The translations under genes and the position numbers were made by a program. A DNA stretch of 64,000 nucleotides, taken from NCBI GenBank assembly GCA_010356995.1, contig ML996689.1, positions 452,691 to 516,690 on the forward strand, in the 5' to 3' direction. Source of the DNA: Trichodelitschia bisporula. Lineage: Eukaryota. The notes beneath the pieces are model-generated. The model had not been told where the DNA came from. It saw only the letters and a list, made by a program, of their open reading frames with translations, and made no database searches. Positions 18,361 through 64,000 of this stretch are shown one piece after another. Position 1 is the first letter of the stretch. Each line of letters opens with the position of its first letter.

Positions 18361-18432
18361 TAGCTGAAGGTGGTTTCGATCCACCGTCCTCCGGGTTATG
18401 AGCCCGGCGCGCTTCCACTGCGCCATTCAGCT
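18361..18432 (-). tRNA. tRNA-iMet (CAT), initiator
   Basis: Reverse complement AGCTGAATGGCGCAGTGGAAGCGCGCCGGGCTCATAACCCGGAGGACGGTGGATCGAAACCACCTTCAGCTA: A1:U72 pair, GGG/CCC anticodon stem, GATCGAAA T-loop, downstream T run. Confidence 0.96.
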
Positions 18433-50352: not shown

Positions 50353-51778
50353 GCAACCGTGGGATTGGACACGATGGCGGATGACTCTGCACGACGCATG
50401 ACTGGACGGTACGCCTCGGCTCTACTCGACACTCGATGCGACTCTTTTTACATTTTGGTTGTTCGGCTTCGTTTTGCTCGGGGGACGTGGACGATCGGGC
50501 GGGTGGCTGACAGTCTCTTCGCGCGCCTGTTCGATCTCAACTTCAGCGCCGGGCATGGACCCGCGAAAGCCTTGGACTGAGCACTGTCTCGATCGCGCAC
50601 TCGAGCTTCATGAGGGATATTTACGCATCTCGATTTTTGGCGCGCGCATTCATCTTATGCAGCAGGTTCGGGAAAAGTGTGCCCATGAGGCAAGGAATCA
50701 GCGGAGAACGGAAAAACTGGCGCTCGGCAGCGGATCTACGAGCATGGAAACGGATTTACTTCACGGTCATCGTCATCATCGTCATCATCATCGCCTGCGT
50801 TGACTCGCTTTCTCGTTTTCTATCTCGATATCATTTCCGCGACTTCTTTTCTCATGTTGCTCGCACCTTTATTTTTTGGCCTGCGTTTTCTTGAGGGGGA
50901 CAGCGATGGTGCAAGGAGTGATTGGGTATTATTCCTATATTCTTTTAACCTGCCGTGCTTGTGGGATCGGGGATCATATTTACGGCTCGGGAGCGCAACA
51001 GAGGATTTTTGGCCATGTACGGGACGGGACGGGATGGGAATCATGAGTACCGGGTTCAGAGATTGGAGCAGGGGATACCAACGGGGACATGGATCGAGAG
51101 GGCTCGGGGGCGGAAGCGTAACTCAGAGGTCCGGGGCCGGGAGGGGGGCGTTATTCTTAGATGAGTGTTTCACGTCTGCGCGGGGGAGCGGGATATCCTT
51201 TCCATTTCGTCCATCAATCCGGCTTTTTCTCCATTGCGGCTCTGCTTTTTCACGCTTCTGGTTTTGAGTGTCCCGAGTTGGACAAGCCTTTTCGGAATTT
51301 CTTTCTCCTTCGCCTGGTTCACGGATCGGCGCAGGGAATCTTGTAAACAACCCTCCTCCTCCTCCCCCCCACCCCCCCCCCCCCCCCCCCCCCCACCATC
51401 CGGCGCGACGGCCGCTCCCGCGCGCTATGTAGAAGACTGCGCTGTACGCGCATACCTGATATCTTGTGAAGTCGTGTATTCGTGAATCTTGTGAGATGGT
51501 GTGTTCCGTACTCCCCCGCTGTCCGCGCCGCAGCCCGCTCCAGGGTGTACGGTAGCCGCGCCATAGGCGTGCGCCCACCGCCTTGCGGCGTAGCAGCGCG
51601 CCTAATCCAGTGCTAGGATCGCGAGTCATGGTCGAGGCACTTAGGTAAAGATGAAGACTTACACATCGCCGGCGGCGGGGTACGTACCTTCCCCGCTCTC
51701 TCCCGCTCCTCCCCAGCCACCGAAAGCACCAGGCCCCGCCATCGCCAAGCCACCCGAAACATATCCTAGGCGTGGAAG

Positions 51779-51902
51779 GAGCGAGCTGGAGAGCGGGGAA
51801 GGAGCAAGCTGGACAGCGGGGAAAGGGCAAGCTGGACAGCGGGGAAAGAGCAAGCTGGAGAGCGGGGGAAGAGCAAGCTGGAGAGTGGGGAAAAGAGCGA
51901 GC
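51779..51902. repeat. ~19-20-bp minisatellite (GAGCAAGCTGGASAGCGGGGAA-like, ~6 units)
   Basis: Directly visible tandem units. Confidence 0.85.
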
Positions 51903-54175
51903 CTTGGGGGCAGCGGAAGCGAAAGGCTTGGGAATTCAGACAACCCCGGCTACGTCTACTTGTTCGCAACAGCACCACGCAGCGGGCGTTGGGTTGCGAC
52001 GCGTGCTCTGTGTCACGCTGGCATTGCACCGCCGGTGCCCTGTCCGAGCTGCGGGCGTGCCTGGCAACGTGGTGAGCGGGAGTGGTACGAGCTTGAGGGG
52101 GCGAATGCGCGCGTGGCCTTCGTGCGACGGTGGGCGCGGGTGAATACGGTCGGTTGTGCCCGATGGGAGTGGTGTGACGCGGGCGTGGTCGGGAGGGGCT
52201 GGAGGAGGGGTTGGAGGAGGGGTTGGAGGAGGGGTTGGAGGGGGCCGCTTTTTAGGCGGGGTAGTGCTGGGCTCGGGTGGTGATGACCAGGCGGCTTGGG
52301 CATTGGGCAGGCAGGCGATCGGTCAGCGGAGGAGGGGGCGAGGAATTGGCGGGGCTGGACCGCAGGTCGTCAGTGGGAAGCGGAGGGAGGGTGAGAAGGG
52401 CTGCTCATACGCTGGGCGACGGGGGCACTTGCCTGTTTGGGAGGGACGGGCGTGCCGGTCGATAGCCGAGATGGCGAGAATGGGGCAGAGAGTTCGGTTA
52501 GGGCGTGAATGGGATGGGTCTGGCGCGGGCTTCGTGGTGAGGTTTGTATGGATGCGCGACTCCGGTGCAAGGTGAGGTGTGCGGGCCGGGTTTGTGGTTT
52601 TTTTTTTTTGGCGGAGGAGGAAGAGGCCCTGGGTTATGCACTGAGGGCCGGGTCGAAGCGTGACGTCGTGCGACGATGGCGGCCGGACATGTGATTCTGA
52701 GGCCTGGGGGCTGCATGGCTGGAAGCTCTTGGTATGGCGGCCCAATGGAGCAGTCCGGAGCGAATTGCGAGGCGGAAGAAGTACTGGTGAAGTTCAGCGC
52801 CGTCTGCGTTACCACAAAATCTTGCGCCAATAGATCTAGCCACAGTGGTGGTACATGTAGGGCTGAGATGCGGGACGGTCCGAAGTGGCATGACTTGCGC
52901 ATGAGACATCAACCCCAGGGAACCGCGGGATGAACGGCGAAGATGGCAAAGGGATAAACATCCCCCCATACCCTTCGCTCCTGATGCAAATCAGCAATGT
53001 GAATGTTAAACGGATGCCGCTTGGCGTGAACGCCATGAGAGACGGGATATACTACCCATAACGGTGCAAATCGGACGTCCCTTCGAAGATACATGTAGTG
53101 ACAAGTCGCAGGACTATATCAGATGCAACGATACATCTCCCTTGACGTGCTGAAGAAGGTCGCCCGCCTGTTTTGCAGTCGAGGGACGTCAAATTAGCGT
53201 GGCCGAGCTTCTGGGCGGCATCGGCTGCGCTAGTCTTTCGGCCCGATTGCCGTCTCGTGGCAGATTGGGCCCAACTCCCGCCACACCGCCGCCATTCACT
53301 CCACTTTCCACGCATGATACCTAACCCACCTCAGACACAGCCCTGTCTCGTTGTGGCTTGGTTAGTATCCCCACTTGCCGCCGTAGCCGCCCGCTTACTG
53401 CGGAGAAAAGCTTATCGTCAAGTCTCCTTTTTCCCTTTATCCCTTCATGCCCGCGTTCACTCCGGGGAGCCTGTTGACTGCGGAGAGCAAAAATGCCGCA
53501 TCTTCTTGCCTTCTGAACCATGCAGCGCGGTCTTTTCTCCTTCTTGAGCGGCACCACCGAACTGGAGGGACGCCGCTGGGCCTGGGAGGCCGCAGTGTCC
53601 GGAGGAGAATTCCTGCTCATATCACGGAACAGCCATGGGGAATCCCGGAGATGGTGGATTTTATGAGTGGATTGGCCCAAAATCAAGCTTACATCCGACA
53701 AGTGGTGATGTCTTGGCCCTGAGTTTCAGGTCGTGACGTCCGATCAACCTCTGGTCATCATTTGCAGCTCAACACACCTAGCCAGAGGGGCCAGGCACGG
53801 GAGTGGATGGACAGCTGGACTGCCTCCAGAAGGAGAGCTTGAAGTTTGCTGAAGGCAGAACCTTATCTACGGCTGGCTGACTGTCTAGCCCAGAAACCAA
53901 TGAGTCGGGGATCGACCAACCCATCTTGGGACGGAACCACGGACTTGCTACCATATCCTCTCTTCCGACATACCTTAGCAATCTCTACCGCCTATTTACA
54001 ACGCTTCGGTCCAAAGGCGACCATGGTGCAACAATATCGCGTCTGCTCATTCTAGCGGCTCCTGCTTACCGTACTTGCTGGTGTGGCAGCTGGTTTGTGC
54101 ATGGTTATTCGAAGGCCCCCATATATTGACCGCGGCCGCAATTTCTATCCATCAATTTTGGTAGAGAGATCCCTC

Positions 54176-54245
54176 AACTACATGGCCTAGTGGGACGCCT
54201 GCTGGGTTCATGCCCGGAAAGTCAGGGGTTCGATTCGCAAAAATC
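54176..54245 (+). pseudogene. Degenerate tRNA-Met-like sequence (pseudogene or SINE head)
   Basis: A box TGGCCTAGTGG, anticodon arm CTGGG-TTCATG-CCCGG (6-nt loop), B box GGTTCGATTC; no acceptor stem. Confidence 0.55.
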
Positions 54246-54906
54246 CCACTTTGGGGGGGTTTTCGTAGCCTCCCGGGAGGTGAGCCTTTTGCTATTTTGA
54301 AGGTTGTAGGCCTTCTGTGGAGCTTTTGCATTGCCTATTTTGTTCATGCTAGTGGTGGTTGGGATGGAAGACTGATAACACTGTCTTCGTTTTGCCGCCT
54401 CATATCCCATCCCAACGCCTGTTCGAGCAAACCGTGGGAGCTGCCAGTGGAATCATACACCCTGAGCATGATCTGATCCCGCTCCCAACTTGTCAACACC
54501 AAACATGCCCCACTGGAGAACTCAACGCCCCAAATCCCGCACCGAAACCGCCTCTCGCCGGAGCGTCCAAGCCAAATCCCGCACCTCCGGCGAAACCCCG
54601 TTCGCCAACCATACCGGTACCCACCAGCCCATCTCCTCCATCCCTTCCCTCAACCACCACCCTTCCCTCTCCCCCTTAGCGCCCCGCACTGCTCCCGCCT
54701 TCATCACCACGGCTTCATGCTCAACACCGCCCCTCATCTCTGCAGCTCCCCCCGCCCCCGTGGCCGATGTTGCGGTACACTCCACGGCACCCGCATTCGT
54801 GTGATGAGCGCACTCGCACAGCGTCTGAGCACGAGGGTGGAGGCCTTGATTGGACGAGCAGGCCTTCCCTTTGTTGTGCATCATCAACTATTTTGCAAAG
54901 TCTAGC

Positions 54907-54923
54907 ACATACGGCCATAGGTC
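54907..54923 (+). rRNA. 5S rRNA gene, 5' fragment (nt 1-17), split by insertion
   Basis: ACATACGGCCATAGGTC matches the Pezizomycotina 5S 5' end and completes helices I and II with the 3' fragment at 60441-60541. Confidence 0.8.
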
Positions 54924-57900
54924 GCAGACATATACCTGTGTCCGCGGGAAAATAGCCGCCAAATCCGGCGGTTTGTAACGGCGTTTCTGGCGTCAGATTT
55001 CCCCAATGCAGGCTTCCAAGAAATCGGGCGCTTAGAGTGTTCAGTATCCCTGTTGATGGCTAACAAATTCCAGCGGACGAATTATATGAATTAGAAAATC
55101 TAAAAAGCGGCTTACCTCGCATCGAGAATCAGCCCTCCGCCACTTTTTCTAGCTCCCGCCTCGTGCCCCTCTTGGGTCTCTCCATCGCCGCCGCCTCAAT
55201 GCGTCCTCCCGCATGCCGTTTTTTTGTCCGCCCGCCCAGGTGATTTCCGATAGCCCATCTGACGAGGGGAGAGCTGGGCGCGGTTTATTCGCAAAGGAAG
55301 AGGTAGTAGAATGGGGTACTTGCGAGGCCGGTAATGCGATGGATACGACCACGCGGGGCCGCTTGATGGACGGGAGGAGCCGCTAGGCTAGTTCGAGGGG
55401 AAGCTAGGCGCTGTCTATCACTTCAACCTTTTGCCATTATTAGTCTGTTGACGACAAGCTGTGGAGTTGTGGATGGACAATCGTTTCTCCTCGATGGGGA
55501 TGATGCCTTTCCTTCACAGTTGGAATGGCCGCACGCTCCCGCGGGCTCAATTGTTCCACGGTACTGTATGTTTCTCGAGTCCCGCGCTGACGACACGATA
55601 CAACATGACTGAGACGATGTCGTCTGCTCAACTCCAATCGAGCCTTCAATCCAGCACCAGGACGCTTGCTAACACCCATCTCACACATTATCCGGCCACC
55701 TCTTCCACAGAATCAACTACGTATCTCCTCCATCAGAACAGTCTGTATGCCCCCTCTGTCCCTCACTGCGCTGCCAAACTCCCGCCCAAAACCATGACCG
55801 CCACTCCGGCATCCTCCCGAGCCCGTTTATGCTTGAGCCCTGGTCAGTCTCGATATCCCGTACAGCATCTACGACGCGGGCATAGACGACGCAAGCAGCG
55901 TAGGCGGTGCACATGGATGAACAACCGGGTATCTCCTCCAGCGAAGTCTTCGTCTATGAACTGATCAGTTGGAAGGAGAACTTGATGCCCCGTGGCATGT
56001 GGCTGTGTCTCCTCCAATCTCGTCCTCCCCTCCGCGCCCGACAGCTCACAGCCTCATTCTTGGCATTCTGCCCCGCAGGTGATCTCAGCTGGAAGCCCCA
56101 AAGCCTCGCCTTCAACCTCGAGTTGCACTCCTGCATTTTCACAAGTCCGCAATTTCTTGACTAGAATCATTATTTCCAAAATGCCACCTGCAAAGCGGGT
56201 CCAGACACGGGGCCACTTCTGTGCCTCTTCCGGCCTTTCACCACCTTCCTCACCTGTTGCTGGCGAGACCACCACGCCTGCCCCCATTAGCAGTGTCGGC
56301 TAGACATCATCTTTACCACTTGCCCCTCAGAGAGCCACCAACAGTGGACCAACCCGCCGACTTCGTCATGAAGACTACACAATAAGATGGATATGCGCTC
56401 TCCCGATGGAACTTGCGGCAGCTCAAGAGATGCTAGATGAGGAACATCAGAGTCTCCCTCAGAATGCGGCTGATTCCAACGTCTATGTGCTTGGCCGCCT
56501 CGGTGGACACAATGTCGTAATTGCGTGCCTACCCGTAGGCCAAATGGGAACCAATGCGGCAGCCTCGGTTGCTGCCCAGATGCAGTTGACATTCAACTCT
56601 GTCCGGCTCGGCCTGATGGTGGGCATCGGAGGTGGTGTGCCAAGTACAGCTGATGTACGGCTTGGGGATGTCGTCGTCAGTCAACCGTTCAAGGATCACG
56701 GCGGAGTAGTGCAGTACGACTTCGGCAAGACGACATCAGACAAGTTTGAACGGACTGGATCCCTCAATTCTCCCCCGCAGGTCTTCCTGAAGGCGATGGC
56801 AAGCCTAAAGGCCAATAACCTCCGAGAGAGAGTCGGGTTCTTACACTCTCTTTTGAAGCTCGCCCAGTACCCAAGATTTGCACGGGACAAAGCCGGGCCA
56901 GATGATTTATACCACGATACCTACAATCATGAGGGAGGACCTGACGACTGCCAGAAGTGCCGGAAAGAGTACGTGGTACGACGCCAGCCGCGCGGCGAGG
57001 ATGTTGTTGTCCATTACGGAACCATAGCCTCCGGGAACCAAGTCATGCGGGATGCGACGATAAGAGACAAACTCAGCACGGAGCTTGGAGGCGTACTCTG
57101 CTTTGAGATGGAGGCAGCGGGGCTCATGAACAGTTTTCCGTGCCTTGTTGTGCGGGGAATATGCGACTACTTGGACTCGCATAAGAGCAAGAGCTGGCAG
57201 CCGTACGCGGCGGGGACGGCGGCAGCGTACGCTAAAGAGCTTGTGTTGTTGGTTCCGCCGGCCAAAGTCGAGACACCAGAAGATCCACCCGCGCCGGCAA
57301 TGCTCCTAAACTTGCCCAGGGCCGCAGACACACCATCGAAGCCACACGAGCGGAAAAAAGCGCCTTGCCTGATTGGTACCCGGGTCGAACTTCTCAGAGA
57401 GATCTACGCCTGGGCTTACGGGGAGAACTCGCCAAATATTTTTTGGTTAAGTGGTTTAGCTGGTACCGGCAAGTCCACTGTGGCTCAAACTGTGGCCGCC
57501 GAATGTTTTCAGAAGGGAAGGCTTGGAGCCAGCTTCTTCTTCTCGCGAAGTGGCGCAGATGTCCGGCATGCCGGCAAGTTCGTGACAAGCATCGCAGCGC
57601 AACTTGCAGACAACGTGCCGGGGGCAAAGCGGTCTCTCTACGAAGCACTGAAGGAGCGAGATACCATTACTGAAGAACCTATCCGCAGTCAGTGGCATCA
57701 TCTCATCCTCGGTCCCATGTCGAAGCTCGAAGGCGACACCTCTGCTCCGTACATCCTGGTAATCGATGCCCTTGACGAATGCGAGGGCGAGGACGACATA
57801 TGGGAAATTCTGGATCTCTTTCGGTGGCTGAAGAAAACCCGGCTCCGGCTGTTTTTAACGAGTAGACCTGAAGTGCCAATCCGGTCTCCTTTGTCCGGAA

Positions 57901-60440
57901 TGCCAACAAGCGAGCACTTGGACTTTTTGCTCCACAGCATTGAGAAGTCGACTGTTGACAACGATATCCGCTTCTTCCTACGGCACGAGTTCGAAGGTCT
58001 AGCCCGGGGACGCTCTTTTGGGAAAGATTGGCCAGGTGAGCAAGTCATCGACTCTCTTGTCCGGAATGCCAGTGGCCTGTTCATCTGGGCTGAAACCGCA
58101 TGCCGCTTTGTTCGACAAGGAAAAGCATTCGCTCCCGAGAAACTAAGCTTGATCCTCGACCGAAGCCATAGTACTGTGAAAGCGCCAGAGAAGCATCTCG
58201 ACGAGATCTACGCGACTGTTCTTCGCCAATCCTTTACCGACTATGAAGACGATGATGCAGAAAAGCTGCGATCCACATTGAAGGAACTGCTTGGAAGCAT
58301 CGTGATCCTGTTTGATCCGCTTTCCATCCGGTCCTTGAGCAAGCTACTCGGCCAGAATATGGGTCGGGCACTGGATGATCTTCACGCCATTTTGGACATT
58401 CCAAAGGAATCAGGTGACGCACTCCGTTTACATCACCCTTCGTTTCGTGACTTCCTTCTCAATCCAGGGAGAAGCGGGAAAACAGGTATCTGGGTTGATG
58501 AAGAGGAGGCGCATCGAGCCCTTGCCACGAAATGCATACTGGTCATGTCTGACTTCCTTACGCAGGACATGCTTGGAATAGGTCGGCCTGGAGTACTCAA
58601 GACCGAGGTCGACAGTCATGAGGTTGAAGGCTCCCTCCATCCTGAGAAGCAGTATGCATGCCTCTACTGGATACAGCATCTTCATAAGAGTGGATCTCAG
58701 CTCAACGATGACGGTAAAGTTCATCAGTTCCTGAAGAAGCATCTCCTTCATTGGCTTGGGGCGCTTGGATGGATGCAGAAGGTTTCCGAAGGGTTCCATG
58801 CCATCGTGTCTTTGGAGTCCATGATTTCGGTAAGCTGGACGTAAAGCAGAATGGGGATACTTGGCTGATACTTGGCTCAGGCGCAGAGGTGTCCCCGACT
58901 GTCGGGGTTTGTTCATGACATGAAACGATTTGTCCTCTACAACCGGTCAGCCATCGAACTAGCTCCCTTGCAGACATATTGCAGTGCGCTGGTATTTTCC
59001 CCGGCAGCAAGTCTTGTAAAAAGGCAGTTTCAAAGCCAAAAACATCTGTGGATGCCCCGACTACCGCAGGTTAGGGACAACTGGGATGCCTTGCTGGATA
59101 CGCTCGAGGGCCATTCGGATTCGGTCAGGGCCGTGGCCTTTTCGCCGGACGGCAAGCAGCTGGTGTCGGCATCGGATGACGGGACGGTCAGGCTGTGGGA
59201 CGCCGGCTCGGGAAAGGCGCTGCAGACGCAAGCAGTTGCCAGGTTCCGGATCGGATCCTCCACGTTTCAGAATTGTCGGGGAATGGATGACCATAGGTGC
59301 GGAAAAATGTCTTTGGCTTCCAGTCGAGTATCGCAATCCGCTACATGTCGCTGTTCACGGAAGCAAGGTTGGCTTGGGGTATTCGTCTGGTCGAGTACTG
59401 TGCAATTTCTCTTAACCGCCTCCCCACCCACCTCCGTTGCGGTCTTAGCCCTTTATACCTCTTTGAGAGTGAAAGTGGCAAAGGATTACAAATGGGAATG
59501 GTACGGCTTTGAAATCAAGCACTCCATTAGCAGATGGTAACAGTGGCGTACAAAAATGTCGCCAGATCAGTGAAGTAATGGCTTCAATGCAATGGGTATC
59601 TGGAAACATCTGGAATTAACCATTCCTTCAGTCCACAGAGAAGGTATGATGGAATGTAGTGGCTGTGTTCAATGTTTTCCACTCCCAGTTCTTGCGTCGA
59701 GCAGAGCGTTGATGAAGACGGGACCAGGCCCTAGCACAACCTGGTCAAAGCCAGAAAAGGGAGACAGTTGCGTACACCATGTCCTCTCAATAGCCTCCAT
59801 TGATAAAGACCTGAAGCTGTATTAGGATGCTAGGCGGATAATCCTATGTTTGTCATCTGAGACCCTACACAGAGAGCCCGATTCTTGAGCGCCACCAACT
59901 CCACCCGCGCCATCAACTTCACCCGTGTCACCAACCCACTCGCCACCTGCGCCACTGCCTCAGCTCGTCTTCCCTTCCCTCACCACGGTACAACTCCACA
60001 CTTAGCCCCCTAGCCACCCCACTCGGAGAATCGGAGTGCGGGGTAGTGTTGCCTGAGTCACGTTGGGGCCGAGCTGACACTGCGAAGACGGAATATGGGT
60101 CCTAACAGGCGCCCCCGCTTAATTGAGATATGACCCTTCCGATACTCATGATACTTCGCTTGCAGGTCCAACCGGGCCGGTTCTGGAGAGGGGAGCCCGG
60201 CGACAGGCCGAAGACGGGGCGATTTAAGGGAGGCGCTGTGGTTCAATGCGGAGGGCAGGACGAGCACAAGTTACTGCCCATCTAAAATCACTTAGCGCGT
60301 CAGTAATTTCCAATTGAAGGAAATCTGGTGCTGGATTTAGCGGCAAGACGGACGAAAGTATTGGCTAGCAAGGATGACAATGCATAGGTTAGTCCAGATT
60401 GGGCACTTTTCTAATTGAGCTTAGGATACGGACACAAGTC
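54924..60440 (+). mobile_element. Captain-less (non-autonomous/derelict) Starship-like element inserted in 5S rDNA, carrying an NLR gene
   Basis: Bounded by the two halves of a 5S gene, with a GTC direct repeat at both junctions. Inverted motifs ACCTGTGTCCG (54934-54944) and CGGACACAAGT (60429-60439). Left end is homologous to that of the captain-bearing element at 60894. Confidence 0.78.
56181..59415 (+). pseudogene. PNP_UDP phosphorylase-NACHT-WD40 NLR (HET-E-like), disrupted (intron 58830-58880)
   Basis: DYTIRWICALPMELAAA, GLMVGIGGG, CFEMEAAGL, RGICDY; Walker A GLAGTGKS; Walker B LVIDALDEC; HPSFRDFL; one WD40 repeat. In-frame TAG at 56301. The conserved tail (LWLPVEYR...GRV) is out of frame after ~59230. 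Confidence 0.88.
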
Positions 60441-60541
60441 AAAGAGAACATCAGCCCCAGTCTGCTCACTGAAGTTAAGCTTTGAACCGGTTGACTAGTA
60501 GTTGCGTAGGTGACCAGCAGCGAATCCCAACTGCTATATGT
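60441..60541 (+). rRNA. 5S rRNA gene, 3' fragment (nt 18-118, degenerate) followed by T-rich Pol III terminator
   Basis: AAAGAGAAC...GCTCACTGAAGTTAAGCTTTGAACCGG...TAGTAGTTGCGTAGGTGACCAGCAGCGAATCCCAACTGCTATATGT followed by TTTT. Confidence 0.88.
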
Positions 60542-60876
60542 TTTCTGTCTTTTTTACACCCCGGAAGCTTGCTGATCGGCTCGTTCAGCGGGAGGAGCTC
60601 CGAAGCTTAATGTAAGCCGACACTCTGGCCGAAGGACCAACCGAAAAAGTCATAGCTGTCCCGTCCGCAAAATCAGCCAGGCGAGGTGGCCATGATAATT
60701 TTTCAGGTGGCCCGTGAAGCTTTCTGCTCAGCCGGCTGATCGAGGGAGATGCTCCGCAGCTTAACGCATGTCCCCTATTCCAACCCAAGAACGCTCTCGC
60801 TCGGAGAGCTAACACTTCTTTTGACAATGATTTTGTTTTTTCGCTAGTTATTAGTTAACCGGCAAGACAGTCCACC

Positions 60877-60893
60877 ACATACGGCCATAGGTC
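60877..60893 (+). rRNA. Second 5S rRNA 5' fragment (nt 1-17), interrupted at the same position
   Basis: Identical ACATACGGCCATAGGTC; AT-rich TTATTAGTTAA about 25 nt upstream. Confidence 0.75.
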
Positions 60894-61164
60894 GGAGAAT
60901 GTATCTATGGTCGCGTCCCAATTTGGTAAAACTCTGAATTTGCACTGCCGTCATATATCCTTTGTCATTAGGCTTGGCGAATATCGTCCAATTAAAGTTG
61001 CCATTATTAAGCGCGCGACTACGTAAGGGAATTGTCGATTCTTCTTTTCAACTTCTCAAATTTCCAGGACGACGAATAAGGCGTCCTTAGATGCCTTCGG
61101 TAGGGGCGTTGTTAGATGGTCCTTAGGAGGGCTAGGAGGTAAACTAGTTAATGCTCTGACTTAA

Positions 61165-62008
61165 ATATCCCCGAAGACCACTGCAGGTTCAGAAGTCAAC
61201 CTGAGCCGAACCCACCATCAATGGAAAGAGTTCTGTGAAGCTGCACGAACCTCCGATATTCCTAATGGAGATGCACTTTTCAGTGACCCTGAAAAGTGTA
61301 TGGCGGAGGCTGACCCTGAGCTGGTTATGTTGTTCCTGAAATGGACTTTGGACACGCGAAAGGGAATCCGAAAAGAGATAACTATTAACGTCTACTATGA
61401 CCGGTGGCACGCCGCTCGAAGACAAATACCGCATCACCGAGTGTGGAGCCTTGAGGACAGGAGGCGTGTCAATTCAGTAAGAGACTCATCTTGATAAACT
61501 CGAAACTAATTTTGTATAGTTCATCTCTTTGGATCTAGCCTCTGAGCATGGACTCAGTAGAGAACGGCAGCCGAAGCCTGTCCTAAGCTTTGCCGATATG
61601 GCCATCCTTCTCAACCACCTTTGGAAATGGGACAGACTGCAGTATACCAACGAGACGTTACGAGTCCAAGTCACCTTGGTTATACTGATTTCGATGGCTA
61701 CGACAACAAGGCCAGCGGCATTGCTAGAGCCGGTGTACGCCAAACAAGGTCATGGGGAACTACCCAAAGTTCTTCGTTATGAGCATGTCAGGGTCTTCTT
61801 AGTCCGCGATTCCGAACGGATGAGACAGAAGCTGGTTCTGGAAATCAAATCTTGTCTTTCACAAAGGATACGAGCGAAATCCCAGATCGTAAGTAACTTC
61901 AGTTTGGCATTTGCATGCTAATAATCTTCTACAAGAACCGCCCACATTCTTACCGAGACAGTGGAGCTCATCTTTGATCCCACAATACCCCTGCTGTTTC
62001 TCGCATTC
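61165..62008 (+). pseudogene. DUF3435 tyrosine recombinase (Starship captain), degraded and truncated (introns 61477-61519, 61889-61936)
   Basis: W.EFC...LFLKW...HGLSRERQPKPVLSFADMAILLNHLWKWD...LRVQVTL...TTRPAALL...LRYEHVRVFLVR; +1 frameshift near 61848 to LVFHKGY; then ELIFDPTIPLLFLAF. Upstream TAA at 61162; cut by an LTR at 62009. Confidence 0.8.
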
Positions 62009-63064
62009 TGTTAAAATGAAGTGTGAACTTGACTGAGTTGCTTGATCGACTAGCAGTGGGAAGTGAGCTGACTATATACCTCGCCAGGAAACGACCCCTC
62101 TCTCCCGGCTCCACTCCAGCCACCCCAGGTTGCCGCCACAAATTCAGCACTCCCACTCAAACCGAGGTGGATGGAAGTGCACCAACAGTGAGCTCCCACT
62201 GCCTCCCATGTCCCGGGATGGAATAAACTCCAAGAGAGACAAAAACAAGAAGGGGTTGGCAGTGTCTGGCCTCATTAAAACCTCAAAAACCAGGTGGGAA
62301 AAACGAGGGAAAAGAATGCCAGAAGCGTTTACCCATTGCTTTCCCGCCCAAAGCGACACTCCAGCCCCAAGGCTTTCCTGAAAACCAGAAAGCGATCCTT
62401 TGGCAAGGTATTGGTGAGTCCGTCAGCGATCTGCTCCTTCGTCGAGATGTACCGCATGTCGATGACCCCCTCCGCCTGCTTCTCGCGTACAAAGTGGTGC
62501 TGGATGGCGATGTGCTTCGATCTGGCGTGAAATTGGGGGTTCTTTGCCAGCGAGATGGCGCCTTGGTTGTCTCCGAAGATGACAGTGGCTGCTGGCTCAT
62601 CGTGTTTGAGAAGCTCCTTGAGTAGGTTGCGCAACCAGACAGCTTCCTTTGTTGCTTGCGTCTGCCCCATGTATTCCGCTTCGCATGATGACAACGCAAC
62701 AACACTCTGGCGCTTCGATGACCAGCTCACTGCTCCACTGCCGAGGTTGAAGATGTATCTGGCCGTTGATCGCCTCGTGGATGAATCCCCAGCCCAGTCA
62801 GAGTCGGTGTAACCAGCCAGAGCCTCCAGCGATCCGCGGTACACAAGTTCCACCTCCATGGTGCCCCGAAGGTAGCGAACGATCCTCTTGACCGCCGTTT
62901 CGTGCTGGGGTCCGGGGTTCGCGAGGAAGCGACTGCAGATGGAGACAGCGTATGCGATGTCGGGTCTAGTACCAAGCATGGCGTACATGAGGCAACCGAT
63001 CGCTTTGGCGTACCAGGTCTTGAGGCTCTGAGGGGCCTGGAAGTCATCGGGTGCTGGCACGATC
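62009..63064 (-). mobile_element. Ty1/Copia retrotransposon 3' part: RT end/RNase H (62329-63060), PPT (62160-62150), 3' LTR (62149-62009)
   Basis: IGCLMYAMLGTRPDIAYAV, GYTDSDWAGD, WSSKRQSVVALSSCEAEY, DNQGAI, RSKHIAIQHHFVRE, ADGLT. TTGAGTGGGAG is followed by TGCTGAA...TTTAACA, a 141-bp LTR with TATATA. Confidence 0.9.
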
Positions 63065-64000
63065 TGTTAAAAGGGGATGTGTGGTCAATGGAAACTGTTG
63101 AAAGGGTGATGCGTGATCAACAGAAACGTCACTGCATCACAAGTTGGACCGAAGGTCTGTCCATGAACAAGTTGCTTAATTGTCAAAGAGGTGGGGATCC
63201 CGAGTCTACTTATACCCGAGCCCTGTGGCTGAACCTGGGTAAGGCTGAACACAGCCACCGCTTTCCAACACTCCCCCCTCAGACGAAACCCAGTGAAAAG
63301 GCGAGGGGTACGCTCACAAAGACACGAAGCTCCCATATGGACAGACGGCCAGGCCTCGTTAAAACCCTCTGTGAGGGAAAGAGTGCCTGGACTTACACAA
63401 GGAGGGGCGGCAGATAGATCGATCCTCATGGTTCCCTTCTCCCCCTCACCTGGTGCGAGCCCATTCAAGACCCAATGCCTCCCTGAACTGTTCGAAGCGA
63501 TCCTTTGGCAAGGCTTTTGTAATAATAATAACTTGATTACGCCCAGGCTTGTTTTAGCTAGCCGTATGGTCGGGTCTCACCACTTTAGGAGTGGGTTTGA
63601 CCAATTTCTTTGGTTCTACACGGCAAAAACCCTCCCTGGAAGGGTTGAGGAAAAGCCCTGGAAGTCGTCCTTTGGAGAGGAGCATTTGAGCCCCACGCCT
63701 TTAACATATGTTTATCGTCTTTTCTTTGCACCATTCTTGTGTGTCCCAAGCGAGAACTTGGCTGCACGCCGAGAAACTGAGAAACACTCCATATCCCAAT
63801 TAAACCCCAAAAACGCCGAACGCCTACAGCAACGCAGATCCCGTAATTCTAGATCATGTGACCGAAAGAGAGAAGGAGAGGAAGGAAATTGAAGAATACC
63901 AGGTGTTGTCCGGAGGCCGCCAGGGGGGGGGGGGCGGCGGCTCCTCTTTGGGGGAGATCCGGTTCCTGGTAGCAAGTGTGGTGTTGAATCGTTGAATCCG
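63065..64000. mobile_element. Probable second LTR element nested in the Copia RT
   Basis: Copia homology stops abruptly at 63064 and the new sequence begins TGTTAAAA, the same 8-mer as the LTR terminus at 62009. Confidence 0.5.

Follow-up and report, generated by a model that had tools for sequence, protein, structure and literature searches.

5S rRNA genes as targets of Starship-type elements

Starships described so far measure tens to hundreds of kilobases, and NLR genes are typical among their auxiliary genes (PMC9156397; for the NLR genes also PMC13486527). Many of these giant transposons reside in 5S rRNA genes: 23% of 222 insertion sites lie there, at no fewer than five distinct sites and with direct repeats of 6–16 bp that match 5S motifs (PMC11162782), and one Starship hotspot of Aspergillus fumigatus is a locus rich in 5S genes (PMC12153272). 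Voyager of Macrophomina phaseolina is always found inside 5S, 20 bp from its start, and its captain is the first gene at the 5' end (PMC9156397). Insertion near the 5' end of the 5S gene and a DUF3435 captain in first position are common to the 5S-targeting Starships of the Voyager, Enterprise (e.g. Osiris of A. fumigatus) and Arwing families. Here we describe a stretch of 64,000 nt from Trichodelitschia bisporula (assembly GCA_010356995.1, contig ML996689.1, positions 452,691 to 516,690; hereafter the window, whose own coordinates are used below). In it, two neighbouring fungal 5S genes are each broken after ACATACGGCCATAGGTC, the first 17 bases of the gene. The first gene holds element 1 (54924–60440, plus strand, 5,517 bp), which has matched ends and lacks a captain; the second holds element 2, which starts at 60894. 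We consider it likely that a Starship-type family with a DUF3435 captain has its recombination ends at these two genes; the family would insert site-specifically, about 17–25 nt into 5S rRNA genes and in the same orientation as the gene.

As in Voyager-type elements, there are long direct repeats matching 5S, terminal inverted repeats and a modified 5S on the right side. The locus differs from them in that one unit is only 5.5 kb long and has no captain. The target differs as well, being GCCCTGTATTCT in Voyager (PMC9156397) versus a head ending in GGTC(NN)AGA here. In 30 rows of Table S1 of PMC11162782, only a single manual direct repeat could lie at the GGTC(NN)AGA site, CCATAG of a Fusarium element, and motif searches in the available supplements of PMC9156397 and PMC11162782 (the latter up to Table S10) gave no match. 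Compared with Starships in general, element 1 has short boundary direct repeats reflecting the target (ATACGGCCATAGGTC on the left versus ATACGGACACAAGTC on the right, 12/15) and terminal inverted repeats (10/11, 54934–54944 versus 60429–60439), but with 5,517 bp and one gene it does not reach the size range of 27–700 kb with cargo.

For the structure of the ends, two further Starships are instructive. Hephaestus moves via a circular intermediate, the 'starmid', whose junction 40-mer has been printed (10.64898/2026.09.21.753150). In our own reading of this 40-mer, 11-nt arms (10/11 complementary) flank a 10-nt spacer, and the TT//AC crossover falls 1 nt inside that spacer. The right arm extends right up to the 3' end, and the left arm is set back by about 9–10 nt (10.64898/2026.09.21.753150). 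The joined ends predicted for element 1 have the same layout (11-nt arms, 10/11, an 11-nt spacer and GTC at its left edge). The target of Hephaestus is loose, TTAC(N7)A, with hundreds of sites (PMC10104507), whereas the target here contains a near copy of the whole arm. Tangerine, a Starship of Xanthoria, likewise has inverted repeats of 10–12 bp apart from its direct repeats and an NLR gene among its auxiliary genes, but its direct repeats are 4–5 bp long, it is not in 5S and it measures about 85 kb (PMC13486527). The matched end structure at our locus is thus of a kind already known for these giant transposons, and it is real and non-random. Three direct copies of the site stand in the right arm; these are new, as are a second inverted box and signs of a highly repeated family.

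Two 5S heads and the left ends

The head ACATACGGCCATAGGTC is found exactly twice in the window, at 54907–54923 (head A) and 60877–60893 (head B), both on the plus strand and both exact over 17 nt. There are no further occurrences in the window at up to three mismatches; the expected number is 0.07, and two or more were seen in none of 100 shuffles. Head A is target-derived and has its own AT-rich upstream flank, and AT-rich stretches lie 10–30 nt upstream of both canonical heads. The heads represent two adjacent 5S genes hit once each, because the elements are separated by a 5S body with its T runs and by a further 334 bp (60543–60876, plus strand, between 5S gene A and head B). Tandem integration into the end of a resident element was rejected on account of the full 5S body, the T runs and the 334 bp that lie between. 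The 334-bp spacer has no similarity longer than 8 nt to the flank upstream of head A.

In the first left attachment site (attL 1), the arm CGGCCATAGGT within the 5S head (54912–54922, plus strand) is followed by an 11-nt spacer (54923–54933, plus strand), which holds the candidate crossover stretch GTC-GC-AGA (54921–54928), and then by the left subterminal inverted repeat of element 1, ACCTGTGTCCG (54934–54944, minus strand). This repeat matches the reverse complement of the head at 9/11 positions and that of the right end at 10/11. Left junction 2 is built in the same way, from the arm CGGCCATAGGT at 60882–60892, a 10-nt spacer at 60893–60902 and the left subterminal inverted repeat of element 2, ATCTATGGTCG (60903–60913, minus strand), with 9/11 matches to the reverse complement of CGGCCATAGGT. 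It departs from the exact complement of the native head at two positions only, both G to A. An inverted match of at least 9/11 to any 11-mer of the head is found in 1.5% of 20,000 random 40-nt stretches of the window (P = 0.015 per junction). The two left ends can be aligned from −8 to +24 round the junction and nowhere else (score 49; shuffles mean 19, maximum 28). Since they are homologous over about 24 nt, they represent one family feature and not two trials. When positions 54000–64000 were compared with the whole window, only these two left junctions were seen. An earlier note on this DNA had described both left junctions and the right end ATACGGACACAAGTC, and all of its strings and coordinates were found in the window.

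Contigs from public sequencing runs (here X1 to X4) add to this picture; this evidence consists of contigs only, and summed depth is not copy number. The flank 52000–54806 is single-copy in X1 (depth 198) and X2 (depth 418), with no differing letters. The single-copy flank contigs of these runs pass through head A to their ends at 54929 and 54933, which means that both runs carry the left junction of the window. One X2 contig contains a third left junction, in which the head (up to 54923) is followed by 23 other letters and by element 2 sequence from 60916; the inverted copy is present at the same offset, at 8/11. A further X2 contig links 60898 via GAC to 60448; in our reading this is an uninterrupted 5S variant, whose canonical head continues into GGAGAGAC. 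Because this uninterrupted variant carries the canonical head, that head is native. The converse arrangement, with canonical heads borne by the elements and the altered head native, was rejected, as the uninterrupted 5S has the canonical head and the CAUA of loop A is intact only there. Finally, a contig of X4, from a different organism, covers 54904–55224, and 46 more letters beyond the head remain unaligned; it therefore shows the same left end on a 5S head at a different place.

The right end and the unity of element 1

The right terminus of element 1 is ATACGGACACAAGTC (60426–60440, plus strand), which agrees with the 5S head at 12/15 positions and contains the first, terminal copy of a repeated site (60428–60439). 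That this end imitates the 5S head had been proposed before and is confirmed here. The right end differs from the reverse complement of the left repeat of element 1 at 1/11 positions, versus five mismatches to the left repeat of element 2. Relative to the head, the left repeat of element 1 carries two changes, C to A at 4 and T to C at 7. Both recur in the right end, which has one further change, and in simulation both are shared by chance with P = 0.006. This co-variation of the two ends is a stronger argument than the inverted matches at the left junctions. Since the right end fits its own left repeat (one mismatch versus five), 54924–60440 is one coherent unit with matched ends. These comparisons support the view that element 1 brings along its own imitation of the 5S head as its right end, and that this end and the left subterminal repeat of the same element are a matched inverted pair.

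A captain remnant in element 2

The captain remnant of element 2 consists of two open frames, 61165–61494 and 61520–61921 (together 61165–61921, plus strand). The second frame matches DUF3435 with E = 7e-10 and 38.8 bits (cut-off 25.8), over profile positions 3–85 of 418 only. The DUF3435 fragment lies 630 nt inside left junction 2 and is directed inward; the remainder is cut off by retroelement material. A comparison of the fragment with the protein collection, aimed at longer proteins, gave no hit, which is weak evidence. In a protein-atlas look-up the N-terminal frame of the captain led to unnamed and QRICH1-type clusters, which we take as a lead only.

The retroelement material that ends the captain (62006–63066, minus strand) comprises a 144-bp piece resembling a long terminal repeat (LTR; about 62006–62149) and an open frame at 62329–63066. 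The LTR-like piece is also present in X1 and X2 contigs, as TGT, 62009–62146 and ACA, inside another copy of element 1, where positions 55722–55726 occur on both sides of the insert as a 5-bp duplication. In the window it sits at the point where the captain of element 2 breaks off. The 245-aa frame 62329–63066 (minus strand) matched no Pfam family at E ≤ 0.01. Motifs that resemble those of Ty1/copia reverse transcriptase/RNase H suggest that it may be of that kind.

Candidate crossover and proposed mechanism

All junctions and the uninterrupted variant have GTC-NN-AGA in common, where NN is GC, GG, AG, AA and GG. For this reason the crossover cannot be placed more finely than within the 8-nt GTCNNAGA, and the proposal of the earlier note that it lies at or near GTC is not pinned down. 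Joining the ends of element 1 does give the inverted repeat of 11 bp with one mismatch that had been predicted, with 10/11 arms and an 11-nt spacer. We propose that the excised ends would join into an attP-like site, in which two 11-nt arms (10/11 complementary) stand round the 11-nt spacer. The captain would bind both arms of this site as well as the similar 11-mer within the 5S head, and the latter would confer target specificity. Strand exchange would take place at the left edge of the spacer, within GTCNNAGA (GTC-NN-AGA). After integration the true head would stand on the left, and on the right the 5S body would be preceded by the imitation head.

Tyrosine integrases of phages and integrative elements that use tRNA genes offer a parallel: the element carries a copy of the displaced gene end, and a gene of whole length remains. 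Such elements usually restore the tRNA gene exactly, over an identical core. By comparison, the copy in element 1 agrees at 12/15 positions and damages helices I and II, and the displaced part is the 5' end of the gene, not the 3' end. Nor does the locus have the make-up of lambda-type att sites, with an identical overlap of 6–8 bp and inverted core sites in both attP and attB; only attL and the circle junction are palindromic. Candidates for arm-type sites are present, namely three direct copies at 60260, 60348 and 60428 and a pair of inverted boxes.

Several observations weigh against recombination ends of a Starship-type family. The spacer of 10–11 nt exceeds the 6–8 bp of the core sites of Cre, FLP and lambda. 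At the crossover the repeat copies are identical over only 3 nt (GTC), or at 6/8 positions over GTCNNAGA, which is short for a classical overlap of 6–8 bp. By reading, the 5S body has no recognisable inverted second half-site, and attB is not palindromic. An intact captain is absent from the 64-kb window, and element 1 has none at all. Binding, excision and the circle are steps that we infer for the 5S-targeting family here. A single right end is visible, as element 2 leaves the window at 64000, and the three left ends are relatives, not independent samples. An empty site was found for neither insertion: the X1 and X2 contigs carry the window's left junction, and the only uninterrupted 5S variant comes from elsewhere. 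Lastly, Table S8 of a published census lists three tyrosine recombinases and no elements for this species (PMC11162782).

The broader proposal of the earlier note, inverted sites of the tyrosine-recombinase type, is thus borne out in part. The DUF3435 fragment inside left junction 2 and the Hephaestus-like layout agree with it; the 5S body without a second half-site, the lack of a captain in element 1 and the fragmentary captain of element 2 do not. Its half-site consensus, CGRMCAYARRT, was over-fitted, matching only its five source sites in the 64 kb, and is broken by the third left junction and by the two extra copies in the right arm.

The hybrid 5S gene

In its present form, 5S gene A (60424–60542, plus strand, Rfam RF00001) consists of an element-derived head and the native body, followed by T runs. 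The segment is recognised as a full-length 5S, with 48.6 bits versus a gathering score of 38 and over model positions 1–120, although its first 17 nt are GGATACGGACACAAGTC and not the canonical head. The imitation head forms 6/9 pairs of helix I, versus 8/9 in a computed form with head plus body, and also costs one pair of helix II and one conserved base of loop A. The folding energies are −21.5 kcal/mol with the imitation head versus −27.1 kcal/mol for head plus body, and the conserved loop A CAUA of the Rfam consensus is kept only in the canonical head. Insertion had been thought to regenerate a near-complete 5S. This holds in so far as the gene passes Rfam at full length, but two pairs of helix I and one of helix II are lost and the conserved loop A is changed. 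Transcription of the hybrid from the internal promoter of the 5S gene is plausible on general grounds. The function of the hybrid nevertheless appears doubtful, by analogy with the conclusion drawn for Voyager. The authors of that study folded the altered 5S (−42.22 to −38.49 kcal/mol) and predicted a loss of function (PMC9156397).

At position 60451 gene A has T, where nearly all X1 5S contigs have C (depth 37,135 of 37,332). The summed depth at this position, about 190 times that of the single-copy flank, is a hint that the 5S family is very large. At least two 5S variants exist just after the head, GTCAAAGAGAAC in the window (60441–60452) and GTCGGAGAGAC in the uninterrupted X2 contig. In addition, a T-rich stretch, CTTTTCTAATTGAG, lies within the final 25 nt of element 1 ahead of the imitation head (60400–60425), at approximately the distance of the AT-rich upstream stretches in the two native 5S genes. 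It is a speculative thought that element 1 may, through CTTTTCTAATTGAG, supply an upstream promoter element for the hybrid 5S.

Direct copies and a second inverted box

The ends of element 1 contain further structure. The terminal 12-mer ACGGACACAAGT (60428–60439) has two more copies on the same strand, ACGGACGAAAGT (60348–60359, plus strand) and ACGAGCACAAGT (60260–60271, plus strand), with two mismatches each. At up to two mismatches, ACGGACACAAGT has seven matches in the window versus 3.6 expected, and 4/7 belong to the ends of element 1. Leaving aside the two seed sites, the right arm is the only 200-nt window with two copies. A second inverted box is formed by GCCGCCAAATCCGGC (54955–54969), 10 nt inside the left repeat, and GCTGGATTTAGCGGC (60330–60344), 3 nt before the second direct copy. 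The two match at 13/15 positions in inverted orientation, a value reached by 0/3000 random stretches. Both the direct copies and the second box were found post hoc, so that their probabilities are generous. The three direct copies and the second box may be accessory binding sites.

A captain-less unit with an NLR gene

No match to DUF3435 was found in element 1 in any frame of at least 100 aa. The element carries one NLR gene (56304–59540, plus strand) with PNP_UDP, NACHT and one clear WD40 repeat, which sits in a single frame (55452–59540) with five internal stops. A public 972-aa gene model of Trichodelitschia bisporula is 100% identical over 97% of the 846-aa NLR frame; in public databases the same NLR is present in intact form, as a 972-aa 'purine and uridine phosphorylase'. 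No ATG precedes the conserved PNP_UDP start in the open frame, which is flanked by stops in the same frame. Within the species, there are four relatives of this NLR at 79–88% identity and nine more distant ones. A metagenome scan with the NLR protein gave 78 loci (580,240 bases) at 39–70% protein identity, and BLAST with five queries from 5S, the element ends and the spacer gave 0 hits for each. The 78 loci are relatives of the NLR only and hold no junction information.

From about 54930 to 64000, summed depth in X1 is 6,000–36,000, with 185,000 in the WD40 bin. This high summed depth is a sign, and only that, that both elements belong to much-repeated families. X3 and X4 show no cover over 60421–60821 and some other bins, from which we draw no conclusion. 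We put forward tentatively, as one possibility, that element 1 is a compact, captain-less 'mini-Starship' made of two arms and one NLR gene, moved in trans by captains of the element 2 type and present in tens of copies in the 5S family and in at least one other organism. It is possible, though not to be given more than limited weight, that element 1 is instead an internally deleted relic of a full-length Starship in 5S gene A, with its original ends and a single cargo gene retained, and that it was never mobile as a 5.5-kb piece. The lack of a captain between 54924 and 60440 would agree with such a relic, as would the visible decay of the adjoining element 2. Reported Starships are tens to hundreds of kilobases long (PMC9156397), and NLR genes are typical auxiliary genes of Starships (PMC9156397; PMC13486527), both of which fit a reduced Starship. 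However, summed depth in X1 and X2 is many times that of the single-copy flank both over the initial 300 nt past the left junction and over the final 400 nt ahead of the right junction; in X1 the sums over the repeated bins are 6,000–36,000 versus 198 for the flank, bearing in mind that summed depth is not copy number. In the contig of the other organism, moreover, this left end is attached to a 5S head whose upstream flank is different. These data suggest that the short form, or at least both of its ends, is present in many places.

Alternative explanations of the end structure

The repeats could also be terminal inverted repeats of the ordinary sort that play no part in target recognition, and would then resemble the 5S head only because the long direct repeat overlaps the right repeat. 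Tangerine, which does not target 5S, has inverted repeats 14 and 28 bp from its direct repeats (PMC13486527), and Hephaestus combines the same layout with the loose target TTAC(N7)A (PMC10104507; 10.64898/2026.09.21.753150), so that parallels for this explanation exist. Yet the target here supplies an arm that matches at 9/11, and the left repeat of element 2 is only two G to A changes away from the complement of the native head, as would be expected if the recombinase reads the same 11-mer in target and element. We consider ordinary repeats unlikely.

Less probable still is an origin without mimicry, by which the altered head 60424–60440 would be the original 5S head, duplicated or left behind at insertion and later mutated, with only an incidental likeness to the left repeat. 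It is true that 5S gene A is somewhat decayed elsewhere, as seen in the T at 60451 in place of the C of nearly all X1 5S contigs and in several non-standard pairs of the body in the Rfam alignment. But two of the three changes in the head coincide exactly with those in the left repeat of the same element (P = 0.006), the same 12-mer occurs twice more in the right arm, and the two bases ahead of ATACGG are also unlike the native ACAT start. We regard a mutated original head as improbable. As for a mere chance resemblance of the repeats, the motifs are short and the best register was chosen after the sequence had been seen, but the separate features, all within 200 nt of the junctions, have P values from 0.015 to <0.001, and this explanation is disfavoured as extremely improbable.

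Other features of the window

Outside the two elements, a tRNA gene lies at 18361–18432 (minus strand, Rfam 66.2 bits). At 51685–51804 there is a GC-rich hairpin of about 120 nt, probably no more than a long inverted repeat; two microRNA precursor families match it weakly and below threshold, one of the two on both strands.

Significance

Because the target is a conserved gene, both boundaries of element 1 can be read without comparison to an empty site. The locus thereby offers a testable recognition sequence for a 5S-specific captain, in a species that has three recombinases but no Starship in the published census. The arm-spacer-arm layout of the Hephaestus circle junction recurs here in a 5S-specific family, with a near copy of one arm already present in the target. 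Such an arrangement offers a simple explanation for the high target specificity of some Starships, and would be a guide for circular test constructs at 5S. Of more interest would be an amplified, non-autonomous 5.5-kb captain-less element. A highly repeated captain-less form of this size would, if true, be unusual for Starships. It would mean that Starship recombinases can support a high-copy, non-autonomous and site-specific parasite of 5S genes, and that the 11-nt arm and its copy in the 5S head would make up the whole recognition code.

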